Positions 5,253 to 58,963 of a stretch of 64,000 bases of DNA are shown in pieces; position 1 is the stretch's first letter; each line of letters starts with the position of its first letter. The notes under the pieces were generated by a model. The model was given only the letters and a program-made list of their open reading frames with translations. It made no database searches and was not told the DNA's origin. Source of the DNA: a virus; IMG/VR virus record IMGVR_UViG_3300037141_000177, positions 1-64,000 of that record; one strand, 5' to 3'. The translations under genes were made by a program, and so were the position numbers.

Positions 5253-6772
5253 TGGAAATCGAACTCCGCAAGCCAGGCATCCAGATCCTCTTAAAAAAGA
5301 ACGTCGGCCGAAAAACGGTCGCCGGTTCCGCACCGCTCTCCCAGCGCTATGCCGGGTCTGGCGGTGTCGTCGACCTGACGCAGTACCTCGGCGAGCACGG
5401 CTCTGTACGCGTTCAAAAATCTGTTCGCGGGGGTGCCGGTGCATTCTCGATCGCGTTTCCCGACAACATCGATATTGGCATCCTAGATTCGCTCTACGCG
5501 CTGATCGAGCCGATGGACACGCTCGAGATTTATATGGCTGGCAACGCGTATCAGTACGCCGGGGTTGGCCTTCCGATAATGATGCGTGGCTTCGTCTCGA
5601 CCATCCAGCGCCAACGCGGCATGTCGCCTGATGGCAAGCCCACGCGCACCGTCGTCGTGTCGGGGCAGGACTACGGGAAGATCCTTCAGATTCTTCAGAT
5701 TTTCAACATGCCGTTCAGTGCGGACGTGGCTGCGCAGGTAACCAACTTTCCGTTCTTTACGCGCTTCGGCTTCAGCCAGCGGCCGCAGACGGTTGAGACG
5801 TTCCTTCAGACCGTGTTCAATATGATTGTGAACCCCTATCTGGCGCTCATGCGCGAGAATGCGGACGGCTCGACGAACACTCAATCGCCGCTGCTGCAAA
5901 TCTCGCTTGATATCCAGAATGACGGCGATCAGGTGTCGCCGTTCGGTACGGGCGGATGGAACACGGGCACGATGGAAAGCCTGATCCAGCAGTTCACTGA
6001 TATCGGCGCGTTCTGCGAATTCTTTATCGAGGATCGGGTCGATGGTCCTTGGGCTGTGTTCCGTTCGAATCCGTTTCAGGACGCGGCCACGGGCGCCTAC
6101 ATTTTTGACGATCTCAAGACGCCACCCAGCTTCATCCCGCTAGTAAGTGCCGACATTGTGACTATGTCGAGCGAGCGCTCAGACGCGAACGTCGCGAACT
6201 ACTTTTGGGTGGAGTCGCCGCGGTTCCTCTATAACCACGACAGTACCGCGCGTGCGGTGTCATTCCAGTCCGCCCAGCAGGGCGGTCCTCAGACGGTCTA
6301 CATGACTGGCTACGGAAACAACAATCCGAACCTGTACGGTATCCGGAAGCTGGAGGAGACGACTCAAATAGCGGGCGGCTCGGAGCTGTACAACGGCATG
6401 GGCTTGAATGGCTTGGCGCTGCCGACTAGCGCGTCCGTCGGTATTGATTGGGTCACGAAGCGTCGGGAGCAGTTGATCGCTCAGAACCTGGATAACGTCG
6501 TATTCGAGACGGGTTCGATGCACATCAAGGGCAATGAGTTGGTGAAGGCCGGGACGTATGCGCAGCTCACCGAGGGTATCCAACTCGCTGATGCTCCGAA
6601 CATGGTGAGTCAGTATTACGTCGACTCGGTGACGCACGATTACGAGCCCTACGGGAACTACTTCACGACGGCTCAATTCTCGCGCGGCACCGGGTTCATT
6701 GTGCGTTCGCAGCGATCGCAGTCGCAGAACTCGCCTTATTGGGCTGAAATCACGCGAGGTAACGGGCTATGA
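5252..6772 (+). CDS. Baseplate hub-like protein
   Basis: 506 aa between TMP and spike; VSGQDYGKIL and YYVDSVTHDY...RG hub-type motifs. Confidence 0.7.
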   Translation: MEIELRKPGIQILLKKNVGRKTVAGSAPLSQRYAGSGGVVDLTQYLGEHGSVRVQKSVRGGAGAFSIAFPDNIDIGILDSLYALIEPMDTLEIYMAGNAYQYAGVGLPIMMRGFVSTIQRQRGMSPDGKPTRTVVVSGQDYGKILQILQIFNMPFSADVAAQVTNFPFFTRFGFSQRPQTVETFLQTVFNMIVNPYLALMRENADGSTNTQSPLLQISLDIQNDGDQVSPFGTGGWNTGTMESLIQQFTDIGAFCEFFIEDRVDGPWAVFRSNPFQDAATGAYIFDDLKTPPSFIPLVSADIVTMSSERSDANVANYFWVESPRFLYNHDSTARAVSFQSAQQGGPQTVYMTGYGNNNPNLYGIRKLEETTQIAGGSELYNGMGLNGLALPTSASVGIDWVTKRREQLIAQNLDNVVFETGSMHIKGNELVKAGTYAQLTEGIQLADAPNMVSQYYVDSVTHDYEPYGNYFTTAQFSRGTGFIVRSQRSQSQNSPYWAEITRGNGL

Positions 6773-8216: not shown

Positions 8217-8245
8217 ACGGTATTGCGTACAACGCAAACTAGCAA
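8217..8245 (-). promoter_or_regulatory. Sigma70-like promoter of the lipoprotein gene with palindromic operator (8223-8237) in the spacer
   Basis: Minus strand TTGCTA-17bp-TACCGT; operator TTGCGTACAACGCAA. Confidence 0.6.
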
Positions 8246-26057: not shown

Positions 26058-26456
26058 TTAGTGCGCCAGTGGTTGCACAACGTTCACCGCCTGGCCGTGC
26101 ACCTGAAGTTCCTCGAGCCAGCATGTGCATGCCCTCAAACCGCCGACAAAGCCCAGCGCCTCTGCGACCATCCACACGGCATGTTCGTTTGGCACCCGGC
26201 CTTCCTTGCCGACGCTCATGCTCATATGTGCGCAGGTTCCCGCTGGGTGTCCCTTCTCGATGCTGTAGGTCACCATAAAATTGGTGGGTATGTGCACGGT
26301 CTGCGCTGTCATCTGGATCATGTGCGCGGCTTTGCCTGCCCGGTGCTTGATGGCTTCCATCAACACCTTCACATCCACGGGCCGTGCGCTCGCGCGCTCG
26401 CGGAGCTCGGTCAGCATCGCGATCTCGGCTGGGCCGATCATCAGTAGCGTGCTCAT
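26058..26456 (-). CDS. Hypothetical protein
   Basis: ATGA-coupled; YSIE...CAHMSMS...P motif. Confidence 0.65.
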   Translation of the reverse strand: MSTLLMIGPAEIAMLTELRERASARPVDVKVLMEAIKHRAGKAAHMIQMTAQTVHIPTNFMVTYSIEKGHPAGTCAHMSMSVGKEGRVPNEHAVWMVAEALGFVGGLRACTCWLEELQVHGQAVNVVQPLAH

Positions 26457-26710
26457 GGTGCGCCCGGTTTGATGGGGTTGCGTGCTATCCATGCCTGCGC
26501 GGCCATCTTCGCCGCCAAGCGGCGCGTGACGCCCTCCGGATCGGGCGATAAGCTGCCGCCGCAGCAGGCACACTGTCCGTTCAGATGATTCAAGCCCCCC
26601 ACGACCGCGCGCAGGCCACACTCCCAATGCAGCGGCGCATTCGAGATGGGGGCCAGCGGCTCTCCCGGCAGGATCGGTTCGTGACAGTGCTGGCAGGTCA
26701 CGGCGCTCAT
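26453..26710 (-). CDS. Cys/His-rich hypothetical protein
   Basis: CQHC...HWEC...CACC. Confidence 0.6.
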   Translation of the reverse strand: MSAVTCQHCHEPILPGEPLAPISNAPLHWECGLRAVVGGLNHLNGQCACCGGSLSPDPEGVTRRLAAKMAAQAWIARNPIKPGAP

Positions 26711-26940
26711 GGCCAGACCCTCATGAACGCGGCGGTGCGCCGGTACGTCTTGGCCGACGTGTCGTATTTCAGGTTGTCGGGCGCGATCGCGATATAGGCG
26801 TTCAGGTCGAGACTCGCCTGTTGCGTGGACAGCCCGAAATAGCCGCTGATCACGTCTCGATTGATGGTGCCGTACTGCGCCATCAGAAAGTCGATGAAGT
26901 GCAGGCGAAAGGTCTGGCCGAAGAGGTTGTTTCTCGTCAT
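26707..26940 (-). CDS. Stand-alone winged-HTH resembling the N-terminal domain of CapW-like WYL regulators
   Basis: RLHFIDFL...G.INR......FGLS.QQAS.DL..Y...AP.NL.YD.SAKTY. Confidence 0.7.
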   Translation of the reverse strand: MTRNNLFGQTFRLHFIDFLMAQYGTINRDVISGYFGLSTQQASLDLNAYIAIAPDNLKYDTSAKTYRRTAAFMRVWP

Positions 26941-27269
26941 GGCGCTTCGCCGCGGCGAATCCTGGCGTTGCACGCCTCTATTTCTACCACCAGTGCTTCG
27001 AGCCTGACGCGAACCCGATTCCACTCGCGCCAGTACCGACCCACCGTCCGGGTCAGAGAAGTCGCTGCCAAAAAACAACCGGCGAGGCAGATGCAGTCAA
27101 TTGCGAGAAGAAGCGTTTCGCCGCGGGCTGCGTTGAAGTGGGCGGCGAATAGATTCCACCCCACCATCACGTAACCACCGAACAAGGCGACCCACAGCTT
27201 CCAGTCCTTCAGCGTCGGCGGGAACCGCGGAAGCCGTTCAGGGACTGGAAATTGCGGCGGTGTGCTCAC
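26937..27269 (-). CDS. Membrane hypothetical protein
   Basis: Two TM segments; coupled. Confidence 0.55.
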   Translation of the reverse strand: MSTPPQFPVPERLPRFPPTLKDWKLWVALFGGYVMVGWNLFAAHFNAARGETLLLAIDCICLAGCFLAATSLTRTVGRYWREWNRVRVRLEALVVEIEACNARIRRGEAP

Positions 27270-27796
27270 GATGCCGGTTCGATCAGGACGGCGAGCTGTG
27301 ACGCGAGAATGGTGCACTCACTGCGAACGTAGTCGATATCGCGGTACGTCTCGGGGTTCCACAGCGAATCGGTTATATGCCCGCGCGCCGTCGGCACGAA
27401 CCCGATCTCGCGCATGGTCGCGTGCATGGCTGGCATTAGGTCGAACGCGTGGCCACAGTCGAAGCCGAACCAGTAGACGTCATCGGGCTCACCGGGTTCG
27501 GGAATGTGGCAGATGCCCTCGCCTGTCTCGGGGTTGAATCCCGGGTCGCACTTATCCGCGAAGGTTATCCCCCCGTGCACCGACACCGGAATTTCAGAGA
27601 AGTCGTGTATTCCGTAATGCGGGTGGCCGGAGCCAACGCCCACGTATCCGCACCAGCTTCCGGTTGTCTTGGCGCGATGGATCATGCACGGCAAGCCGGT
27701 AGCCGGGTCGGTCCACTGCACCTTGTCCGGCTCGCTGTTCCACGGGCCTTCGCCCCAAGTCGTTTTATCGAGAAACTTCCATTGCATCTCTTTCAT
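27266..27796 (-). CDS. Phage hypothetical protein
   Basis: WCGYVGV..HP, VHGGITF, WFGFDCGH motifs. Confidence 0.8.
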   Translation of the reverse strand: MKEMQWKFLDKTTWGEGPWNSEPDKVQWTDPATGLPCMIHRAKTTGSWCGYVGVGSGHPHYGIHDFSEIPVSVHGGITFADKCDPGFNPETGEGICHIPEPGEPDDVYWFGFDCGHAFDLMPAMHATMREIGFVPTARGHITDSLWNPETYRDIDYVRSECTILASQLAVLIEPAS

Positions 27797-28150: not shown

Positions 28151-28165
28151 TTGCGGTCTGCGCAA
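28151..28165. promoter_or_regulatory. Candidate repressor operator
   Basis: TTGCGGTCTGCGCAA, intergenic, upstream of leftward genes. Confidence 0.5.
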
Positions 28166-29139: not shown

Positions 29140-30501
29140 TCATGCTTTCTCCTGCTTCAACGAAAACGCGAGCAAGTCCTCTGCGGTCGGCTCGCCCCAC
29201 AGTTTTGCGGCGAGCCACTCGGCGAACGCCGTTTTCGCCAGTTTCGATTTGACGACTCGGTTTGTAATCCCGTCGCGGACTTGTTTCGGCAGGTCCATCG
29301 CAAGCCACTCGTCTTTCAGGGCCGTCGCTTCGTCAGCCCCGACTTCTTTCCAGTAGCCGCTGGCTTCGGTTATTTGATGGGCCTTGTATGCCGCCTTCAG
29401 GCTGGTCATCTCCGCCTCGGGGTCTGCTAGGTCGAGCGCTGCTTGCTGTGCCGCCTTAACCGCGATTTTCGGCTCTTTGTACTTGCTTCGAAGCATGACC
29501 TTGAAATAGGCCGCTTGGCTCACCAACGGTTTCCCCGACGTACTCACGGCCTTCGCGTCGGTGGCCTTCAGTGCTGCACGAATGACTTTCCTCTCGTGCT
29601 TTTGGTATATCGCACGCGCTTCGTCTTGCGGGATGTCCATCGCGACCATTCGTCGAATCAATTCAACGTCCAAGGGCGAATTGATCTCGCCGAATCCGCT
29701 ATTTTCGCTGACGGGCTTGGGCACGATTTTGAACTGGATATCGCTCACCCGAATCCCGTTTTTGTGCTCCACCAACTCGACCGTAAACGTTGCCCTGTCC
29801 TGACTGTTTATCTCAGAAATACTGGCCTTCAGAATGTCGCGTTTGAAGTATTTGTACTCGCTGTATGTGTTCTTCGCGTCGCCGGTCAGAACGGGCACCC
29901 ACCACGTCCAGTCCGCTCGGTTCGTGACCCCTGTTCCGTCTTTCTGATTTCGACTGTTCGTTTCGTAGCGCGAGCAAATCTCAAAAAGGGAAACCGACGC
30001 GCCCGAGGTGAGCGACGTATGGATTTGCAGAGACAGGTGCGTGAAGGCTTTGTAATCGAACAAGCGGGATTGAATTTTTTCCGGAAACATCCACTCGAGC
30101 GTTTTTGCCTTGCCACGCGGCCCGTCGTTTAGCTCGGCTTGCGCCAGCATTGCGGTAACGCCCCACCCCGCCACTTTCCCCGGTGTGTTCCAGATAACTG
30201 CGATGCCTGCGGTCATCAATTCAAGGTGGTGCTTGATCACGTGTGTCGCGCCGCTGCTGAATTCGATGTACTCCATCACTTCGGATAAGGGACGGCTGTA
30301 CTTGGCTTGTGGGCCGTCCTGTTGAGCGAAATAAACCAGCACGTTGAAGAGGCGCCGCACCACAAGCGTGACTCGACCGCGCTGCGGGTGAATGGCGATT
30401 GTCTCGTTCATGCGCCGGACGAAATCTTCGTCGTTCGGTGTCGAAATGTCTGTGTTTTGCATGGGCCACAACATATCCGAGCCGGTGAGACAGATCAACA
30501 A
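29140..30501 (-). CDS. repA: Plasmid replication initiator (Rep_3/RepB-type); true start may be ATG 30462
   Basis: RRLFNVL, LFEIC.RY, YSEYKYFKR.ILK.SI.EIN, VEL.EHK.G..V..IQF; iterons directly upstream. Confidence 0.9.
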   Translation of the reverse strand: MLICLTGSDMLWPMQNTDISTPNDEDFVRRMNETIAIHPQRGRVTLVVRRLFNVLVYFAQQDGPQAKYSRPLSEVMEYIEFSSGATHVIKHHLELMTAGIAVIWNTPGKVAGWGVTAMLAQAELNDGPRGKAKTLEWMFPEKIQSRLFDYKAFTHLSLQIHTSLTSGASVSLFEICSRYETNSRNQKDGTGVTNRADWTWWVPVLTGDAKNTYSEYKYFKRDILKASISEINSQDRATFTVELVEHKNGIRVSDIQFKIVPKPVSENSGFGEINSPLDVELIRRMVAMDIPQDEARAIYQKHERKVIRAALKATDAKAVSTSGKPLVSQAAYFKVMLRSKYKEPKIAVKAAQQAALDLADPEAEMTSLKAAYKAHQITEASGYWKEVGADEATALKDEWLAMDLPKQVRDGITNRVVKSKLAKTAFAEWLAAKLWGEPTAEDLLAFSLKQEKA

Positions 30502-31267: not shown

Positions 31268-31891
31268 TTACTCCGCTGCGTTGACTAAGGCTTGGATCAG
31301 GGCGTCTGCTCGTGAATTCAGCGCCTTGTACCGGGTTTCTGTGACCGCATACCCCTCGTTTTGCGCCGTTCGGTAGCTCGGGCGCTCGACCATGCAGCCG
31401 TCCAGCACGGCGTATCCGGCTTTGGCGATATAGGCGCGGGCTTGGGCCTCCTCCGCGTCGGTGCCTATGCGGCTCAGGGCAAAAGCGAGTTTCTCGATAG
31501 GCACGCCCGCCTTCACCAGCGCGTGAAACTCCCGGACCGCTGGGCGCAGATCGTCAAGGGACGCTCCGCTCGGCTGGACGACGAGGTTCGCCGCCATCGC
31601 GATCGCGAGCGTCGCCGCGCTCGTGCGCGCTGGCGCATCGATCACGAGGATGTCGTACTGCCCAGCAATCGCGAGCGCCTGTGCTGCCGTTTTGAACGAT
31701 TCGGCGGAGATGGCCGGTTGGATGCCGGCGTCGTTCCTGGTGATCTGCCAGAACACGCTTGTCGATTGCTGGGTGTCCAGGTCGGCGAGTTTTACGCGTA
31801 GGCCGGCTGCTGCACCTTCCCTTGCTAATGCCCTGGCGAGTGTGCTTTTGCCTACCCCGCCCTTCTGTGAGACGAACGCGACAATGGTCAC
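31268..31891 (-). CDS. parA: Type Ib ParA partition ATPase
   Basis: 207 aa; QKGGVGKST deviant Walker A, DLDTQ, VIDAP. Confidence 0.93.
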   Translation of the reverse strand: MTIVAFVSQKGGVGKSTLARALAREGAAAGLRVKLADLDTQQSTSVFWQITRNDAGIQPAISAESFKTAAQALAIAGQYDILVIDAPARTSAATLAIAMAANLVVQPSGASLDDLRPAVREFHALVKAGVPIEKLAFALSRIGTDAEEAQARAYIAKAGYAVLDGCMVERPSYRTAQNEGYAVTETRYKALNSRADALIQALVNAAE

Positions 31892-37665: not shown

Positions 37666-38502
37666 TTAAAATCCGCCTCTGCAGCTGGATCGTTTAACCC
37701 GGCCCACGATGTTGACGCCCGCAGCTTGCTGCGCGGTGAGAACCATCTCGGGGTAGCGCGAATTTTCACAGATGATCCGAATGCCTTTGTTCACGAATGG
37801 GAGCACTCGACGCACGCAAAGTTGAGGATCTAATTCGTCGAGAACTATGACGAAAATCCCGCCGTTCAACGGTATCTCTTTATCTCCTAAGTCCGCCACC
37901 ACCACGTCTGACGCGTACATACGAGGCTCCATCGTATCGTCTAGTAGTTCGAAGCATCCAATATTATCGGGTTTGCTATCCAAGTCATTCACCATGAACC
38001 CGCCGAAGAGGTGAGTCGTGCGTTCTTCCACACTGTATGTAATGCCGCCTCTTGAGGCATTTGGCCTCGCGGTGATTATTCCAATGGCCACGTTCTCGTC
38101 CTTTGGTATCTCGTTGAGACACTTAAACTCGCTGAGATGTCGGGTGTGGCGTCCGACGTCTGGATCACCAGTATTACCCCGTATTCCGTTATGTGCCGGT
38201 ATATCCGAAAACAATTGCGCGAGCGTTATGTCTAGTGCCTTCGCGATCGCAATCATGGAGTCGTTGGTCAGGCTTTGGTGGCCGTTCTCGATTTTTGAAA
38301 GGCTCCCGGTGTTGATCCCGGTTCGTAGGTTCATCTCTCGGAGCCGAAGGCCACGCTGCTCGCGATGCGCTTTTATTCGTTTGCCAATTTCGGCGTTTTC
38401 TACATTCTCGGCTTCGCTCACGACGCTCGCTCCTTGAGGTGTCGCTAGGTTTTTCCCCGATGCTCGTGCTCTTGTTAGACGGGTATTACGAGCATCATCC
38501 AT
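37666..38502 (-). CDS. cI: CI-like repressor (XRE HTH plus S24 peptidase-like domain); start uncertain
   Basis: IGKRIK..R...GL.L.....GI....LSKIENG; DTMEP...D.VV.D, RIICEN..YP; divergent from cro. Confidence 0.88.
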   Translation of the reverse strand: MDDARNTRLTRARASGKNLATPQGASVVSEAENVENAEIGKRIKAHREQRGLRLREMNLRTGINTGSLSKIENGHQSLTNDSMIAIAKALDITLAQLFSDIPAHNGIRGNTGDPDVGRHTRHLSEFKCLNEIPKDENVAIGIITARPNASRGGITYSVEERTTHLFGGFMVNDLDSKPDNIGCFELLDDTMEPRMYASDVVVADLGDKEIPLNGGIFVIVLDELDPQLCVRRVLPFVNKGIRIICENSRYPEMVLTAQQAAGVNIVGRVKRSSCRGGF

Positions 38503-38523
38503 AAACGTATCATTGTTAATATT

Positions 38524-38538
38524 TTGCTTCACGCGCAC
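38524..38538. promoter_or_regulatory. Candidate operator in the cI/cro intergenic region
   Basis: TTGCTTCACGCGCAC. Confidence 0.55.
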
Positions 38539-38574
38539 AATTCCCTTCGTAAACTTTCTTACATGTGACATAAA

Positions 38575-38865
38575 ATGAATCCGTCCGACCAGAAGACCGG
38601 CGCCTCTCCGCTGCGAAAAGTCCGGCACCTGCGTGGCCTGACGCTGCAGGAAGTCGGCCGGCGCATGAACATGGACTCGGGCAGTATTTCGCGCATCGAA
38701 GTCGGGGGTCAATGGCCCCCTAAAGACCTACTGGTGCGGCTTACAGCGTTTTACGCGCCTGACCTGCTCGAGGTGCACATCCTGTTTCCGGAGCGGTACA
38801 TGAGCTTCGTTGCTCCGCCTCTGGCCGTTAAGAAAGTAATTAAAACTGTAGACAAATCCAAATAA
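38575..38865 (+). CDS. cro: Cro-like XRE HTH regulator
   Basis: SPLRKVR..RGLTLQEV...DSGSISRIE.G...EVHILFPERY. Confidence 0.85.
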   Translation: MNPSDQKTGASPLRKVRHLRGLTLQEVGRRMNMDSGSISRIEVGGQWPPKDLLVRLTAFYAPDLLEVHILFPERYMSFVAPPLAVKKVIKTVDKSK

Positions 38866-38900: not shown

Positions 38901-38915
38901 ATGCGTTTAACGCAA
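38901..38915. promoter_or_regulatory. Candidate operator upstream of the lytic replication gene
   Basis: ATGCGTTTAACGCAA. Confidence 0.6.
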
Positions 38916-39072: not shown

Positions 39073-39921
39073 ATGAATCACTCTTTTGACATCGATCACG
39101 CTGCTCGCTTCGGGACCAACGAAGCGATCCTGATCGAGTGCATCGCCTTCTGGGTCCGCACGAACAAGGCCAATGGAACGGGCGAGTTCGAAGGCCGGAC
39201 CTGGACCTACAACTCCGTGCGCGCCTATGCGGTGATGTTCCCCTACATGTCCGCCGGTCAGGTGCGCCGCGCGCTCGAGCACCTCGTCGAGCTCAACGTG
39301 CTCATGGTCGGCGAGTTCAACGCCAAAGCGGGCGACCGGACCAAGTCCTACGCGTTCGTCGACGACCGGCCTTTTCAGCCTGAAGTCGACCATTTGTCGC
39401 TGGCAGCAAATGGTCCCGAAACGCCCGAAACCGACCATTTGTCATTGGCGACAAATGGTCCCGAAACACCCGAAACTGACCATTTGTCACCGGCAGCAAA
39501 TGGGGCCGACCATTTGTCACTGGTGCCAACTCCATTTGTCACCAGTGACAAGTCACTAATAAGTACAGTTGTAAACACAGTTAACCCGGCGGTGAAGCCC
39601 AAAAAAGCCCCGCCTGCGGCGCCTGATCTCGCGCCTGGTGAGCCGCTCTGGTCGAGGACCGACGAGTCGATCATGGCGCGCGGAGTCGAGCTGGGCGTCG
39701 CGCCGCTTGTGGGCGAATCGATGACGGCGTTCAAAAACCGGATTCAGGCAAAAACCGACCCGGTGAAAGCAAAACCCGCTCGCGCAAACGTTGCCGTCTC
39801 CGCTTCTGTGCAATCCCGGGCTCCGTTGCCCCGGCCAGCCGTACCGACGCCCGAGGTAATCGCGGCCAGACGCCGAGCGCTTGACCACGCGCTGCACGGT
39901 CAGCAGGGGAGACTGCATTGA
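39073..39921 (+). CDS. Phage replication initiator (replisome organiser/O-like wHTH)
   Basis: FD...A..FG..EAIL...I.FW...N......EGRTWTYNS.......FPY.S..QVRRAL; internal DNA repeats. Confidence 0.8.
   Translation: MNHSFDIDHAARFGTNEAILIECIAFWVRTNKANGTGEFEGRTWTYNSVRAYAVMFPYMSAGQVRRALEHLVELNVLMVGEFNAKAGDRTKSYAFVDDRPFQPEVDHLSLAANGPETPETDHLSLATNGPETPETDHLSPAANGADHLSLVPTPFVTSDKSLISTVVNTVNPAVKPKKAPPAAPDLAPGEPLWSRTDESIMARGVELGVAPLVGESMTAFKNRIQAKTDPVKAKPARANVAVSASVQSRAPLPRPAVPTPEVIAARRRALDHALHGQQGRLH
39388..39553. repeat. Intragenic palindromic repeats, candidate lytic origin
   Basis: GACCATTTGTC at 39388, 39433, 39478, 39508 (partial at 39532); 39433 copy is GACCATTTGTC-N6-GACAAATGGTC. Confidence 0.85.
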
Positions 39922-53185: not shown

Positions 53186-53200
53186 TTGCTTATAACGCAA
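53186..53200. promoter_or_regulatory. Candidate operator at the head of the leftward early array
   Basis: TTGCTTATAACGCAA; adjacent minus-strand TTGCGG-17bp-CATACT. Confidence 0.6.
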
Positions 53201-53359: not shown

Positions 53360-53959
53360 ATGGCTCGGCCATCGATTAGTAAAGAACAGTGGACGGTTGC
53401 TCGCGCAATTTGGGAGAGCGATCCGGTCGTGACATTCGCGGAGATCGCCGAGGACTTTGGCGTCACGCGTCAGGCCGTCCAACTTCACGCCCGACGCCAC
53501 GGTTGGGTGAAGCGCCTCGATAAGCAGACCGTTTCGGATCTGGCTCACGCTGCGGCGGATTCAAAACTTACAGGATCGCCGGCGGACGGATCCAAGCCGG
53601 CGGGGTCTGTTGTCGCGGACACGCTTGAAAAACGCATCACGCGCGCTTTGCCTGATCTGCCGCTCGGTGCGTCGCCTGAAGACGCGCAGAAGGCTGCTGA
53701 AGCCGCCGCGATCGATAGACGGGCGGAGGTGTTGGGTACGCACCGGAAGGAGCTACTGGCCGCTCGCACGCTTCTGTATGGCGCGATCAAATCGAAGGTG
53801 CTCGACGAGGCCAAGCAGGTAAAGATCGCGGCCGAGGCGATGAAGATCATCCAGGACGCCGAACGAAAAGCCTGGGGTCTGGATTCCGATGAAAAGGGCG
53901 GTCGTCCGCAGGTCCAGGTGATCGTGCATCGACGCGCGGGTAAGCCGAATGGACACTAA
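53360..53959 (+). CDS. Terminase small subunit-like HTH protein
   Basis: QW...R..WE......EIA..FGVTRQAV...A...GW; ERKAWGLD. Confidence 0.6.
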   Translation: MARPSISKEQWTVARAIWESDPVVTFAEIAEDFGVTRQAVQLHARRHGWVKRLDKQTVSDLAHAAADSKLTGSPADGSKPAGSVVADTLEKRITRALPDLPLGASPEDAQKAAEAAAIDRRAEVLGTHRKELLAARTLLYGAIKSKVLDEAKQVKIAAEAMKIIQDAERKAWGLDSDEKGGRPQVQVIVHRRAGKPNGH

Positions 53960-55214
53960 TCGGGTCTTGTTCGGGGATTGTCGCGCGTCGCTGCGCCTGA
54001 TGGCCGCTGAAGGTATGCAGGTGCAAACGTGCGTCACGTCGCCTCCGTACTACGGCTTGCGTGACTATGGCGTGGATGGCCAGCTCGGCCTCGAAGAAAC
54101 GCCCGACGAGTACGTTGCCGCGCTGGTGGACGTGTTCCGCTGCGTGCGCGACGTGCTGGCCGACGACGGCACGCTCTGGCTGAACATCGGCGACAGCTAC
54201 GCGGCGAACCGCGGCTATCAGGTCGCCTCCACGCTTATGAATGGCAAGGCCACGAACGAAGCGCAGGCCGCTGGCGGTCGTGGCATGAAGGCCGCTGACT
54301 ATGGGGTGAAGCCGAAGGACCTGATCGGTATCCCGTGGATGGTGGCGTTCGCGCTGCGCGCTGACGGCTGGTATCTGCGCTCGGACATCATCTGGTCGAA
54401 GGGCAACCCCATGCCTGAGAGCGTCACGGACCGGCCGACGAAAAGCCACGAGTACTTGTTTCTGCTCGCAAAGTCCGAGCGCTACTACTACGACCACGAA
54501 GCGGTGAAGGAGCCCGCCGTGAGCGATCACGCGTCGGGTAACGGCTTCAAGCGCGACGCGCGCTTGTCCTACAAAGACGCCAATGGCGCGCGCGGCAACG
54601 ATGAACAGTGGACGGATATTGGCGGTAGACGTAATCGCCGGTCGGTGTGGAGCGTCAATACGAAGCCGTACAAGGGTGCCCACTTCGCCACGTTCCCGCC
54701 GGGACTGGTCGAGCCTTGCATCCTCGCGGGCACAAGTGCGGAGGGGCATTGCCCGGTCTGCAGTGCGCGTTGGCAACGTGTCACAGACCGTCAGGCGACC
54801 GGCTGGAATGGGAGCAGATATGGCGAGGCGGCGCAGGCGGCGACCGGCGGGGCGATCAGCGGCGGCACTGCGCGCAGCACGCTCGGGTCGAGTAACGGCA
54901 GGCTCACCGCCCAATACCTCACGACCGGCTGGCAACCGACCTGCGCATGCGGTGCCGATTCGGTGCCCGACGTGGTGCTCGATCCGTTTATGGGCAGCGG
55001 CACGACTGCGGCTGTTGCTGTCGACCTTCGTCGGGGCTTCCTCGGCTGCGAGCTGAACCCCGAATACGAACATCTTCAAACCGAGCGGATAACGCGCGCG
55101 CGTGCGGCGCTCGCCGAGCGGCTTGCTGCCGCCTACGCCGCTACCGCGCAGGGCGATCTGTTGAACCCAAATTCGTCTCACACCGTAGTTCAATTCGAAG
55201 GAGCAAAGGCATGA
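53949..55214 (+). CDS. Amino (N4-C/N6-A) DNA methyltransferase, beta class
   Basis: TSPPY catalytic motif, HFATFP, DPFMGSGTT. Confidence 0.92.
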   Translation: MDTNRVLFGDCRASLRLMAAEGMQVQTCVTSPPYYGLRDYGVDGQLGLEETPDEYVAALVDVFRCVRDVLADDGTLWLNIGDSYAANRGYQVASTLMNGKATNEAQAAGGRGMKAADYGVKPKDLIGIPWMVAFALRADGWYLRSDIIWSKGNPMPESVTDRPTKSHEYLFLLAKSERYYYDHEAVKEPAVSDHASGNGFKRDARLSYKDANGARGNDEQWTDIGGRRNRRSVWSVNTKPYKGAHFATFPPGLVEPCILAGTSAEGHCPVCSARWQRVTDRQATGWNGSRYGEAAQAATGGAISGGTARSTLGSSNGRLTAQYLTTGWQPTCACGADSVPDVVLDPFMGSGTTAAVAVDLRRGFLGCELNPEYEHLQTERITRARAALAERLAAAYAATAQGDLLNPNSSHTVVQFEGAKA

Positions 55215-55663: not shown

Positions 55664-55893
55664 TCATAAGCACGGGCAAAGAGGCAGGCGCTGAATGGGC
55701 ATTCAAGCTGCTCGCGCGGGGGAAGTCGCGCACGGGCCTTGGGATGCCGCTTGAGGTCACGCGCTGCGCGACCGATGCGATTCGGTCCGGTGCCGGTTAT
55801 CGGTTTATGCGTGACGCGCCGGAAGACGTTCGCGAGCAATACGCACTGATGTACGACGGGATCATCGCGGCGGAGGGGCAGCGTGACTTTTAG
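55660..55893 (+). CDS. Hypothetical protein
   Basis: ATGA-coupled. Confidence 0.5.
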   Translation: MIISTGKEAGAEWAFKLLARGKSRTGLGMPLEVTRCATDAIRSGAGYRFMRDAPEDVREQYALMYDGIIAAEGQRDF

Positions 55894-57316
55894 CGCGATC
55901 ACCTTCGGCTCAGTGTGTTCGGGCATTGAAGCGGCGAGTGTGGCGTGGGTTCCGCTTGGCTGGCGCGCGGTGTGGTTCGCGGAGATAGACGCGTTCCCGT
56001 CCGCGGTGCTTGCGCATCGGCATCCGTCGGTGCGGAACCTGGGGGATATGACGCTGCTGGTGGCACGCGTGCAGTCGGGGGAGATTGAGGCGCCCGACGT
56101 CCTGGTGGGCGGCACACCGTGTCAGGCGTTCTCGCTGGCGGGGCTTCGTGCTGGTTTGAATGATCCACGCGGTCAGCTTGTGCTGCGGTTTTTGGAATTG
56201 GCAAATGCAATTGACGCAGCTCGACTTGTTCTCGGAAAGCCCGCGTGTGTCGTCGTCTGGGAGAACGTCTACGGCGTGCTCAGCGACAAGACCAACGCCT
56301 TCGGATTCTTACTTGGTGGGCTGGCCGGCGAAGATGTTCCACTTGAGCCGCCAAGGGACGCCCGTGGCCTGAGAAAGCCTTGGTCGCACGCTGGTGCTGT
56401 GTATGGACCCCAAAGAGCAGCGGCATGGCGGCTCCTCGACGCCCAATATTTCAGAGTGGCACAACGACGCCGCCGTTGTTTCCTTGTGGGCAGTGCTCGA
56501 GCGGGGTTCGATCCAGCGAAGGTACTTTTTGACTTCGAAGGCGTGCGCCGGGATTCTCCGCCGAGCCGAGATGCGGGGGAAAACGTTACCGGCACTCTTA
56601 GCGCGCGCACTTCAGCAGGTGGCGGACTTGGGACCGACTTTGAACTAGCCGGTGGCCTGCAGGTGTGCTCGCCGGTCGTGTGCCTGGCGCACGGGCAGGG
56701 AGGGGCCGAGGTGTCGGAGGACCGGTCGCCGACGCTCACCTGCAACCACGAGGCACCGATCGCCGTGTATGCGTTCCAGCCGCGCATCGCGCGCAATGGT
56801 CGGGGCGATATGGGCGAGCTCGTCAATGCGTTGACGGCCACTGCTGGCGAGACGGGCAAGGGTGATGCTGCGCCGTGCGTCGCACTCGCGTTCAAGGCTT
56901 CGCACTTCACGCGCGGTAAGGATGGCGCTCCGTCTGAGGTCTGTCCGCCGCTGTCGGCCGACGCCGACAAGGGCGATCAGGACACGCTGGTGTGTGCGCC
57001 CACGGGGATCGCCTTCGACGCCCGTCAAGACCCGGTTTCAAACGATCACGTCGCAGGCGCGCTCGGCTCATCCAGCCCGCAATCGCAGGCCGTGTGCGTC
57101 GCCGGAGGCATGGCGGTGCGTCGTCTCACGCCGGTCGAGTGCGAGCGGCTTCAGGGATTCGCGGACGGCTACACAAACGTTCCGTACCGCGGCAAGCCTG
57201 CTGCGGACGGTCCGAGATACAAGGCGCTTGGCAATTCTATGGCCGTGCCGTGCATGGCCTTTCTTGGGCGCCGCATCGCGGTCGCTATTGGTGAGCTTAT
57301 TCGGGAGCACGCATGA
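55883..57316 (+). CDS. C5-cytosine DNA methyltransferase
   Basis: SVCSGIEA, GGTPCQ, ENV, QRRRR, RRLTPVECERLQGF, YKALGNS. Confidence 0.93.
   Translation: MTFSAITFGSVCSGIEAASVAWVPLGWRAVWFAEIDAFPSAVLAHRHPSVRNLGDMTLLVARVQSGEIEAPDVLVGGTPCQAFSLAGLRAGLNDPRGQLVLRFLELANAIDAARLVLGKPACVVVWENVYGVLSDKTNAFGFLLGGLAGEDVPLEPPRDARGLRKPWSHAGAVYGPQRAAAWRLLDAQYFRVAQRRRRCFLVGSARAGFDPAKVLFDFEGVRRDSPPSRDAGENVTGTLSARTSAGGGLGTDFELAGGLQVCSPVVCLAHGQGGAEVSEDRSPTLTCNHEAPIAVYAFQPRIARNGRGDMGELVNALTATAGETGKGDAAPCVALAFKASHFTRGKDGAPSEVCPPLSADADKGDQDTLVCAPTGIAFDARQDPVSNDHVAGALGSSSPQSQAVCVAGGMAVRRLTPVECERLQGFADGYTNVPYRGKPAADGPRYKALGNSMAVPCMAFLGRRIAVAIGELIREHA
56403..56648 (+). CDS. Overlapping +1-frame ORF inside the C5 MTase (beta-polypeptide-like)
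   Basis: SLWAVLE...RYFLTSKACAGILRRAE.RGK.LP..L..AL. Confidence 0.5.
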   Translation: MDPKEQRHGGSSTPNISEWHNDAAVVSLWAVLERGSIQRRYFLTSKACAGILRRAEMRGKTLPALLARALQQVADLGPTLN

Positions 57317-57603
57317 GAACGATCTACAAGTACCCGCTCGAGCGCGGCGTGACTCGCCTCGATGTTCCGCCTGGTTCGACGCTGGTGTCGGTTGACATAC
57401 AGAACGGCGAGCCGATTGGCTGGGTGATGCACGACCGGGAGCGTCTGCAGGCGAAGGAGCGCGAGGCGATCATCGTGACTATCGCGCGTACGGGTGGCGA
57501 CATACCTCGGGAGTGCGGAAGCTATCTGTCGACGTTTTTCGAGCACGGCGGGCTGTACGTGTGGCACGCGTTCGCCCATTACGAAGGGCCGGTGAATGGC
57601 TGA
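57313..57603 (+). CDS. Small phage hypothetical protein
   Basis: MRTIYKYPL...TG...YL.T.....VWH. Confidence 0.7.
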   Translation: MRTIYKYPLERGVTRLDVPPGSTLVSVDIQNGEPIGWVMHDRERLQAKEREAIIVTIARTGGDIPRECGSYLSTFFEHGGLYVWHAFAHYEGPVNG

Positions 57604-58963
57604 TATCTCGATGCCGACCGCGCTGGTGATGCGTAACGTCGCGGACCTGTTGCCGTATGCGAGGAATGCCAGAACGCATTCGGATGAGCAGCTGGCGCAG
57701 ATCGTCGCGTCGATGACCGAGTTTGGCTTCACGAACCCGATCCTCGTCTCCGGTGACGGGATCCTCGCGGGGCACGGTCGGATTCTAGCGGCCGAGAAGC
57801 TCGGGCTGACGGTGGTGCCGACGATCGACCTGTCGCATCTGTCCGAGACGCAGCGGCAGGCGTACGTGCTCACTGACAACAAGATCGCGCTCAATGCGGG
57901 ATGGGATCTCGACATGCTGCGCGTTGAGCTGGAGGAGCTGGAAGCGAAGGGGTTTGATCTGTCGATCACGGGCTTCGGCGCGGACGAGCTCGAGGAGCTC
58001 CTGCATCCGGATCTGGAAGCGCCTGGTGGTGATCCGGACGAAGTGCCGGAGACGCCCACGGTCGCGCACTCGGTGCTTGGCGACGTGTGGATTTGTGGCG
58101 CGCACAAGGTCATGGTTGGAGATGCGCTGTCGGTCGATGCCTGGGACGCGCTGATGGGCACGGAGAAGGCGGACGTGGTGTGGACGGACCCGCCGTACAA
58201 CGTTGATTACGAGTCGAAGCTGGCCGGGAAAATCAAGAACGACAAGATGGGCGACGGTGCCTTTCATGAGTTCCTGCTGGGTGCCTTTGTGGCGCTGTTC
58301 ACGGTCATGAAGTCGGGTGCGGCGATCTATATCGCGCATGCCGATACGGAGGGCTACAACTTCCGCAGCGCCTTCCTGAAGGCCGGGTTGAAGCTGTCGG
58401 GTTGCCTCATCTGGAAGAAGAACACGCTGGTCCTCGGGCGTAGCCCGTACCAGTGGATCCACGAGCCGATTCTGTACGGATGGAAGCCGGGAAAAGCGCA
58501 CCGATGGTTCGGCGGCCGCAAGCAAACGACGGTCACGGATTTAGGCGATGCGTCGCCGTTCGAACTGCAGCCCGACGGTCGCTGGGTGGTGCGCGTCGGT
58601 GAGGAGACGCTTGTCGTGTCCGGCGATGCGCTGGTGGAGCGCGTTGAGACATCGCTGATCTATCACGACAAGCCTGCGCGCTCGGCACTTCATCCCACGA
58701 CGAAACCGGTCGGACTTGTCACTCGTCTTTTGAAGAATTCCGCGCGTCGCAACGACATTGTGGTCGATGCCTTTGGCGGTTCCGGCACGACCTTGATCGG
58801 CTCTGAAATGGTCGGCATGTGCGCGCGCCTGATGGAGCTTGACCCTCGCTTTGTCGACGTGACCTGCGCTCGTTACCTTGCCTACACGGGCCGCGTGCCG
58901 GTGAGTGCGGTGACCGGTCTGGAATTCCCGCGCGGCGTGCTCGAGCGGCTTAACGCCAAGTAA
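57596..58963 (+). CDS. ParB-like N-terminal domain fused to adenine DNA methyltransferase
   Basis: PYARNARTHS, FGFTNPIL, AGHGR; TDPPYNV, HPTTKP, DAFGGSGTT. Confidence 0.92.
   Translation: MADISMPTALVMRNVADLLPYARNARTHSDEQLAQIVASMTEFGFTNPILVSGDGILAGHGRILAAEKLGLTVVPTIDLSHLSETQRQAYVLTDNKIALNAGWDLDMLRVELEELEAKGFDLSITGFGADELEELLHPDLEAPGGDPDEVPETPTVAHSVLGDVWICGAHKVMVGDALSVDAWDALMGTEKADVVWTDPPYNVDYESKLAGKIKNDKMGDGAFHEFLLGAFVALFTVMKSGAAIYIAHADTEGYNFRSAFLKAGLKLSGCLIWKKNTLVLGRSPYQWIHEPILYGWKPGKAHRWFGGRKQTTVTDLGDASPFELQPDGRWVVRVGEETLVVSGDALVERVETSLIYHDKPARSALHPTTKPVGLVTRLLKNSARRNDIVVDAFGGSGTTLIGSEMVGMCARLMELDPRFVDVTCARYLAYTGRVPVSAVTGLEFPRGVLERLNAK

Follow-up and report, generated by a model that had tools for sequence, protein, structure and literature searches.

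WYL-type repressors control many anti-phage systems, and the reason why these systems are inducible is debated. Phages are known to carry host-type regulators that act on host promoters, with experimental support for VqmA of vibriophage VP882 and for phage-encoded H-NS. Two groups of WYL-type regulators are the closest described systems to the viral protein analyzed here. CapW is a repressor of CBASS operons with a wHTH-WYL-WCX domain organization (structures: 7TB5, Pseudomonas aeruginosa PA17; 7TB6, Stenotrophomonas maltophilia C11; 9C5G, Rhizobium leguminosarum). It heads the defense operon and has its own operator there. BrxR is a WYL regulator of BREX and of other defense islands (structures: 7QFZ, Escherichia fergusonii; 7T8K and 7T8L, Acinetobacter, the latter DNA-bound). 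In the full-length dimers, the head (the winged helix) packs against the WYL domain and the linker of the partner.

CapW is described as being released by a signal of ssDNA or DNA damage (PMC11662680). In S. maltophilia CapW, DNA binding and repression are abolished in an R32 mutant and in an S42/Q45/S47 triple mutant, and R32 is, according to the authors, typical of CapW and not of BrxR (10.1101/2022.01.04.474952). In BrxR from E. fergusonii, R17 is essential for binding and repression (PMC9122601). In the DNA-bound BrxR from Acinetobacter, S37-R38-Q39-Q40 contact bases and K64-G65-Y66 reach the minor groove; the head buries only about 870 Å2 per half-site (PMC9122589).

Here, we describe a phage-encoded protein, P0001, which is very probably the DNA-binding head of such a regulator, blind to the signal and belonging to a phage family of its own. 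Automatic database names already call such proteins "BrxR wHTH domain-containing". A full-text search of a literature collection returned papers on CapW and BrxR, and nothing on head-only phage proteins. New here are the separation of the family by a single branch, the observation that its distinguishing residues are in columns other than those of the DNA contacts, the identification of the rare short bacterial matches, as far as examined, as broken full-length genes, and a phage/host pair (Sonora and S. maltophilia) that is suited for experiments.

The Gene and Its Phage Background

The window, which is the whole stretch of DNA that was analyzed, corresponds to the initial 64 kb of a virus record from IMG/VR, which has 73,971 bp and a CheckV completeness estimate of 80%. 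The preliminary description of this DNA had called a 77-aa ORF at 26707-26940. Sequence and translation place the gene for P0001 exactly there, on the minus strand, with its ATG at 26940-26938 and its TGA at 26709-26707. The gene, its immediate neighbors and the annotated genes that characterize the phage are as follows:

26453-26710, minus strand: downstream ORF, 85 aa, Cys-rich; its own ATG overlaps the stop codon of P0001 as ATGA
26707-26940, minus strand, stop codon included: P0001, a stand-alone winged helix of the CapW/BrxR type (ORF, phmmer against PDB, AlphaFold2, Foldseek, PF26109)
26937-27317, minus strand: upstream ORF, 126 aa, hydrophobic, no family match; its stop codon overlaps the ATG of P0001 as ATGA
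29140-30501, minus strand: Rep3-type initiator
31268-31891, minus strand: ParA
37666-38712, minus strand: CI-like repressor
53949-55214, plus strand: DNA methyltransferase, one of three within 5 kb
55883-57316, plus strand: DNA methyltransferase, one of three within 5 kb
57596-58963, plus strand: ParB-methyltransferase fusion, the third methyltransferase gene within these 5 kb

With ATGA overlaps on both sides, P0001 is part of a tightly packed co-directional array and thus lacks a separate promoter gap. The overlap with the upstream ORF suggests translational coupling. The family search of P0001 and both neighbors gave no PADLOC match, and no family could be assigned to the Cys-rich downstream ORF. 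Upon clustering of neighbor genes, four further viral loci (L004, L020, L021 and L024) turned out to have relatives of this ORF close to the wHTH gene, and the five loci are probably related to each other.

Upstream of the gene, the same strand carries the genes for recombination, partition and replication; the gene itself is located among small genes annotated without function. The record also codes for a tail fiber, a virion protein, RecT, an SbcC-like protein, SSB and a Ref-like nuclease. Judged from its gene content, the phage is temperate and probably plasmid-like. The combination of Rep3-type initiator, ParA, ParB-methyltransferase fusion and CI-like repressor makes a phage-plasmid lifestyle likely; a second, O-like replication module is found at 39 kb. 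The three clustered DNA methyltransferases may serve self-methylation against host restriction. A comparison with isolated phages at the DNA level gave no match to the record. The closest baseplate protein (46% identity) is from Bordetella phage PHB04.

A CapW/BrxR-Type Winged Helix without a Sensor

The likeness to the N-terminal wHTH of CapW, which had been claimed from recognition of the sequence, is borne out by database searches. When PDB sequences were searched with phmmer, residues 7-77 of P0001 matched chain residues 22-92 of CapW from P. aeruginosa PA17 (7tb5) with an E-value of 4e-15. Further matches were CapW from S. maltophilia (7tb6, 6e-10) and from R. leguminosarum (9c5g, 7e-8), followed by BrxR (7qfz, 1.5e-4; 7t8k, 6.5e-4). 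The profile of the short relatives of P0001 matched 7tb5 at 2.7e-24.

A structure search against CapW, which the preliminary description had proposed as a check, revealed very strong similarity. An AlphaFold2 model based on an alignment of 48 short relatives has a mean pLDDT of 93.3. According to DSSP, it consists of three helices (3-22, 28-35 and 39-52) and a hairpin (57-68). The best Foldseek match in PDB is 7tb5 (TMq 0.95, rmsd 0.7 Å, 44% identity over 75 columns). All 15 PDB matches with E <= 1e-3 are CapW or BrxR; generic winged helices follow after a clear gap, and F-112 of SSV1 is among the weak fold matches. The precomputed Pfam label of P0001 is PF26109 (WHD_BrxR), which P0001 shares with BrxR, even though it is more distant in sequence from BrxR than from CapW. 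Scans with PHROGs, NCBIfam, PADLOC and a Pfam set that does not contain PF26109 returned nothing useful.

P0001 stops where the winged helix stops, and no residues are left for a WYL domain, a WCX domain or a linker helix. These are the parts in which it differs from CapW and, in the same way, from BrxR, and without them it is not capable of ssDNA sensing and has no known means of dimerization. The absence of a WYL domain, also claimed previously, extends to the complete record: when all 73,971 bp were searched with the WYL profile PF13280, there was one sub-threshold chance match (6623-6724). In contrast to CapW, which heads a defense operon, P0001 is encoded mid-operon and by a phage.

Predicted DNA-Contact Residues

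The elements of P0001 that matter for DNA binding and for assignment to the family are:

26875-26934, minus strand: helix 1, residues 3-22, with R12 and the family-specific residues L19 and Q22; Y23 is just past the helix
26785-26826, minus strand: recognition helix, residues 39-52; the motif S38-T-Q-Q41-A-S43-L-D45 begins one residue earlier
26737-26772, minus strand: beta-hairpin wing, residues 57-68, with K64-T65-Y66 (DSSP; alignment to K64-G65-Y66 of Acinetobacter BrxR)
26710-26727, minus strand: C-terminal end motif F72-x-R74-x-W76-P77, the hallmark of head-only proteins; full-length regulators run on into the linker helix

In a gap-free alignment, the residues R32, S42, Q45 and S47 of S. 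maltophilia CapW correspond to R28, S38, Q41 and S43 of P0001. All DNA-binding residues that have been tested in CapW are thus kept, including the CapW-typical arginine. R17 of E. fergusonii BrxR aligns with R12 of P0001. The S-x-Q-Q-A-S motif and the wing motif K-x-Y align position by position with the DNA contacts in 7T8K, the counterparts in P0001 being S38-T39-Q40-Q41 and K64-T65-Y66. Based on these alignments, the DNA-binding mode is probably conserved, and P0001 is predicted to bind double-stranded DNA sequence-specifically through helix 3 and the wing.

The site that is read is another matter. R38, the main base reader of Acinetobacter BrxR, is replaced by T39 in P0001, so that the DNA site of P0001 must differ from that of Acinetobacter BrxR. 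As this column is variable in the family, the site probably differs from protein to protein. Also, P0001 is devoid of the dimerizing parts, and the contact of BrxR with a half-site is small; a lone head may therefore bind weakly.

A Head-Only Family Separate from Full-Length Regulators

An exhaustive HMMER search among 1.84 billion representatives resulted in 552 matches. The best ones are all short proteins which align to their last residue, and full-length proteins of 290-310 aa appear from an E-value of about 1e-11. A word-based homolog search returned one short relative and no longer ones. The curated head-only set consists of 49 representatives, each of them standing for one cluster at 50% identity. 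These proteins end at, or within 7 residues of, F-x-R-x-W-P. The C-terminus of P0001 (residues 72-77, F-M-R-V-W-P) fits the family end F-x-R-x-[WFY]-P, with which the proteins from 34 of 39 viral loci close as well.

In maximum-likelihood trees, a single branch (SH-aLRT 92) separates the 49 short sequences from 29 full-length ones, with P0001 on the short side. The label (short or full-length) changes once on the tree, and none of 500 label shuffles gave a value as low. The trees were quickly computed from 73 columns, so that they are a good indication of the split but no proof. They are also unrooted and thus do not tell which of the two forms arose first. The single split argues against many recent truncations and against recent captures of host regulators. 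The head-only proteins appear to be an old and diverse lineage of their own rather than one copied recently from a host CapW.

When the 49 short sequences were compared column by column with 92 sequences of the full-length type, the DNA-contact columns were found to be common to both groups (R12, R28, S38, Q41, A42, S43, D45, Y49, N56, Y59, K/R64 and Y66, with K/R64 and Y66 being near-invariant in both). The most variable columns are the exposed positions 39, 44, 47 and 48 of the recognition helix. The columns that set the two groups apart belong to the first two helices and to the C-terminal end:

position 7: Y in head-only, W in full-length proteins
position 14: R in head-only, E in full-length proteins (H14 of P0001 is a minority state)
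position 19: L in head-only, R in full-length proteins
position 22: Q or H in head-only, W in full-length proteins
position 23: Y in head-only, E or D in full-length proteins
position 30: A or V in head-only, D in full-length proteins
position 74: R in head-only, P in full-length proteins
position 76: W in head-only, F in full-length proteins

P0001 has the head-only states L19, Q22, Y23, V30, R74 and W76, as opposed to R19, W22, E23 and D30 in the full-length proteins. We infer that the group-specific columns reflect the lost interface of the head with the WYL domain and the linker. In the short family, this surface may be reused as a C-terminal cap or as a new contact surface.

One real fusion was encountered among relatives with an N-terminal extension. 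This protein of 145 aa (P0009, from the representative library) has an XRE/CI-type HTH (PF01381, E-value 1.7e-13) followed by a C-terminal head-only WHD_BrxR domain. Most of the other seemingly long head-only forms are artefacts of start codons assigned too early in GC-rich DNA.

Distribution and Genomic Context

A pattern scan of IMG/VR resulted in 39 loci. The proteins from 38 of these are too short to contain WYL and WCX domains, and 34 of the 39 end within 4 residues of the domain end. The sole full-length protein is from L033 (286 aa). The scan patterns were derived from sequences of the short family, and one of the two also fits CapW sequences, so that the bias of the scan toward short forms is partial. 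The viral contigs that carry the family range from small ones up to 315 kb, and some have 180-315 kb. Atlas clusters which contain the domain in proteins of 76-96 aa are 57-83% viral.

Bacterial genomes gave a different picture. Among about 800 sampled genomes from Pseudomonadota, the short-family profile had about 117 matches, and all but three of them are in reading frames of 270-430 aa. Two of the short ones were examined (L076:5842-6174 and L079:4463-5391), and both carry the full-length signature. One is truncated, and its genome has two intact 301-aa paralogs of it. The other is a 91-aa ORF directly followed by a 199-aa ORF, apparently a single gene that has been split. No verified head-only member was found in these genomes, and a scan of genome contigs returned a single locus, which is full-length. 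In the data searched, the family is almost confined to phages.

Among isolated phages, the family is rare. When 50,697 records were searched with P0001, P0007 and P0013, only two phages matched, Sonora and Arash. Gp088 of Stenotrophomonas phage Sonora has 75 aa and is unannotated. It belongs to a series of small, overlapping genes, only two of which are annotated as anything but hypothetical, and the 8.9-kb region around it has no annotated partition or replication gene. The S. maltophilia phage Bhz59, which is similar to Sonora in size and has a small amount of DNA in common with it, has no match to the gene. The recognition helices of gp088 and of CapW from S. maltophilia C11 are alike but not identical at the variable positions; taken without the CapW from the actual host strain, this comparison is uninformative. 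Gp136c of Salmonella phage Arash (L080:2480-2809) has 109 aa and is labeled "WYL domain-containing protein", for which it is too short. This label was probably carried over from full-length relatives. Such phage head-only WHD_BrxR proteins, of which Sonora gp088 and Arash gp136c are examples, are the actual family of P0001: it is like them in its length class, has their end motif and helix-1 signature, and is likewise of viral origin. Even to its nearest head-only members, P0001 has an identity of only 48-60%.

The neighbor genes are not conserved between the viral loci, except for the small Cys-rich ORF in five of them. In about 30 of the 39 loci, the matched domain is preceded, at a distance of no more than 60 nt, by the end of an ORF on the same strand. 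One locus (L037:4980-5419) codes for two 73-aa head-only paralogs in tandem, with an ATGA overlap; this is a hint that two heads may work together. Sporadic presence and unconserved neighbors point to a mobile accessory gene rather than to a core regulator tied to its targets.

Operator Searches and Repeats in the Window

Palindromes with 9-bp arms are at chance level in the window (103, compared to 99 after shuffling), and no palindromic operator above chance was found near the P0001 gene. The upstream regions of 32 full-length genes had no common operator motif. Two sets of repeats stand out.

The first is a 22-bp dyad, CATTTGTC-N6-GACAAATG, with five copies at 39391-39554 (spacing 45, 45, 30 and 22 nt; 0.16 expected). 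All copies are inside a 282-aa ORF (39073-39921, plus strand) which adjoins the CI-like repressor. They look like lambda-O-style origin iterons within the gene for an O-like initiator.

The second is a 15-bp palindrome, TTGCGT-N3-ACGCAA, with copies at 8223-8237, 38901-38915 and 53186-53200 (three found, 0.28 expected). The copy at 38901-38915 is located between the CI-like and the O-like gene. These dispersed palindromes are a candidate operator set of the CI-like repressor. With 6-bp arms and a 3-bp spacer, they may suit the dimer of a CI-type repressor rather than CapW or BrxR, whose sites measure 19-25 bp, but this is a weak indication. One further site is degenerate:

28151-28165, minus strand: TTGCGC-AGA-CCGCAA, with two mismatches, in the gap of roughly 150 bp that heads the sub-operon with the wHTH gene

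It is tempting to speculate that this degenerate copy is also a repressor operator, but this assignment is weak. If it is a CI operator, expression of the P0001 gene would be confined to lytic growth, which is an equally weak prediction.

Possible Roles of P0001

Our preferred reading is that P0001 acts on the host. It would bind a specific DNA site and occupy the operators of WYL-type regulators, or similar sites over promoters. Having no sensor, P0001 would stay bound under the signal, DNA damage or ssDNA, by which CapW and BrxR are dislodged from their operators. Inducible defense operons would thus stay shut while the phage replicates. For the whole explanation, including host defense operators as the target, we estimate a probability of about 0.35. 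In its most specific form, a dedicated phage family of repressor heads on WYL-type operators would block the damage-induced rise of CBASS, BREX and other defense islands, which we consider rather unlikely. The suggestion from the preliminary description that P0001 might interfere with CapW, when taken as direct protein contact, found no support. The logic of host-directed action would be that of VqmA and phage-encoded H-NS, to which P0001 has no relation in sequence or fold.

The phage bias of the family, its behavior as an accessory gene and the CapW-like DNA-reading face speak for a host-directed role. According to a 2026 preprint, induction enables surviving cells to overwhelm the counter-defenses of phages (10.1101/2025.11.13.688357). 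A family that consists of the DNA-binding head of such repressors, and that was met almost only in phages, would be an obvious means to block this induction. Several observations speak against it. Searches for palindromes and for upstream motifs did not reveal an operator. The head-only lineage is not interleaved with host regulators, unlike what repeated capture for mimicry would produce. P0001 is devoid of the parts for dimerization, to which CapW and BrxR owe their affinity for palindromes, and the fusion of an XRE/CI-type HTH to the head in P0009 resembles an ordinary phage regulator. In addition, CBASS has been reported to protect without CapW-dependent induction, so that blocking the latter may bring little gain.

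About as likely is that P0001 is a transcription factor of the phage itself and acts on phage DNA, where it might time early or middle genes or shut a phage promoter. It would then have only the ancestry of the fold in common with CapW and BrxR. Small DNA-binding proteins encoded in the early region of a phage are frequently regulators of phage genes, and the existence of one old head-only lineage apart from the host regulators agrees with such a role, as do the fusion in P0009 and the tandem pair of paralogs in L037. The variability at positions 39, 44, 47 and 48 of the recognition helix would be expected if each phage has its own sites. However, core regulators are usually syntenic with their targets, and neither neighbors nor synteny are conserved here. 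Also, the gene is usually without its own promoter gap or operator, since it is located mid-operon with ATGA overlaps, and the family is sporadic even among isolated phages. The repeats in the window are better explained by the iterons of an O-like initiator and by the palindrome of a CI switch.

It is improbable that P0001 is a DNA-binding accessory factor outside transcription, serving the maintenance or partition of a plasmid prophage, the control of replication or the exclusion of phages and satellites with WYL-type regulators. Many small monomeric winged helices act architecturally, F-112 of SSV1 is among the weak fold matches, and the gene is downstream of ParA and the Rep3-type initiator on the same strand. 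However, the family is also found in other kinds of phages, such as Sonora and the viruses on contigs of 180-315 kb, so that the family is not generally linked to a plasmid lifestyle. Also, the sequence of P0001 is CapW/BrxR-like and not Xis- or ParG-like.

That P0001 is the remnant of a truncated or split full-length CapW/BrxR gene, a pseudogene or a chance ORF, for which bacterial genes of the full-length type that were truncated or split (G515:C198 and G182:C67) are a precedent, is effectively excluded, since its stop is exactly at the domain end after F-x-R-x-W-P, the next gene is unrelated and overlaps by ATGA, no WYL remnant exists in the record, the head-only signature (L19, Q22, Y23, V30, R74 and W76, not R19, W22, E23, D30 and P74) is present, and it groups with the short clade, 34 of the 39 viral relatives ending within 4 residues of the same point.

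Biological Implications

A cheap test is at hand. The cultured phage Sonora, which has S. maltophilia as its host, carries a member of the family, and the CapW from S. maltophilia C11 has already been characterized.

If P0001 is a regulator of the phage's own genes, one DNA-binding module serves regulators of defense islands as well as those of phages, a finding relevant to the origin of WYL regulators. If, on the other hand, host defense operators are its target, P0001 would represent counter-defense by transcriptional lock-down rather than by inhibition of defense proteins, and thus a new class. The family would then also be a direct probe of what the induction of defense systems is for.
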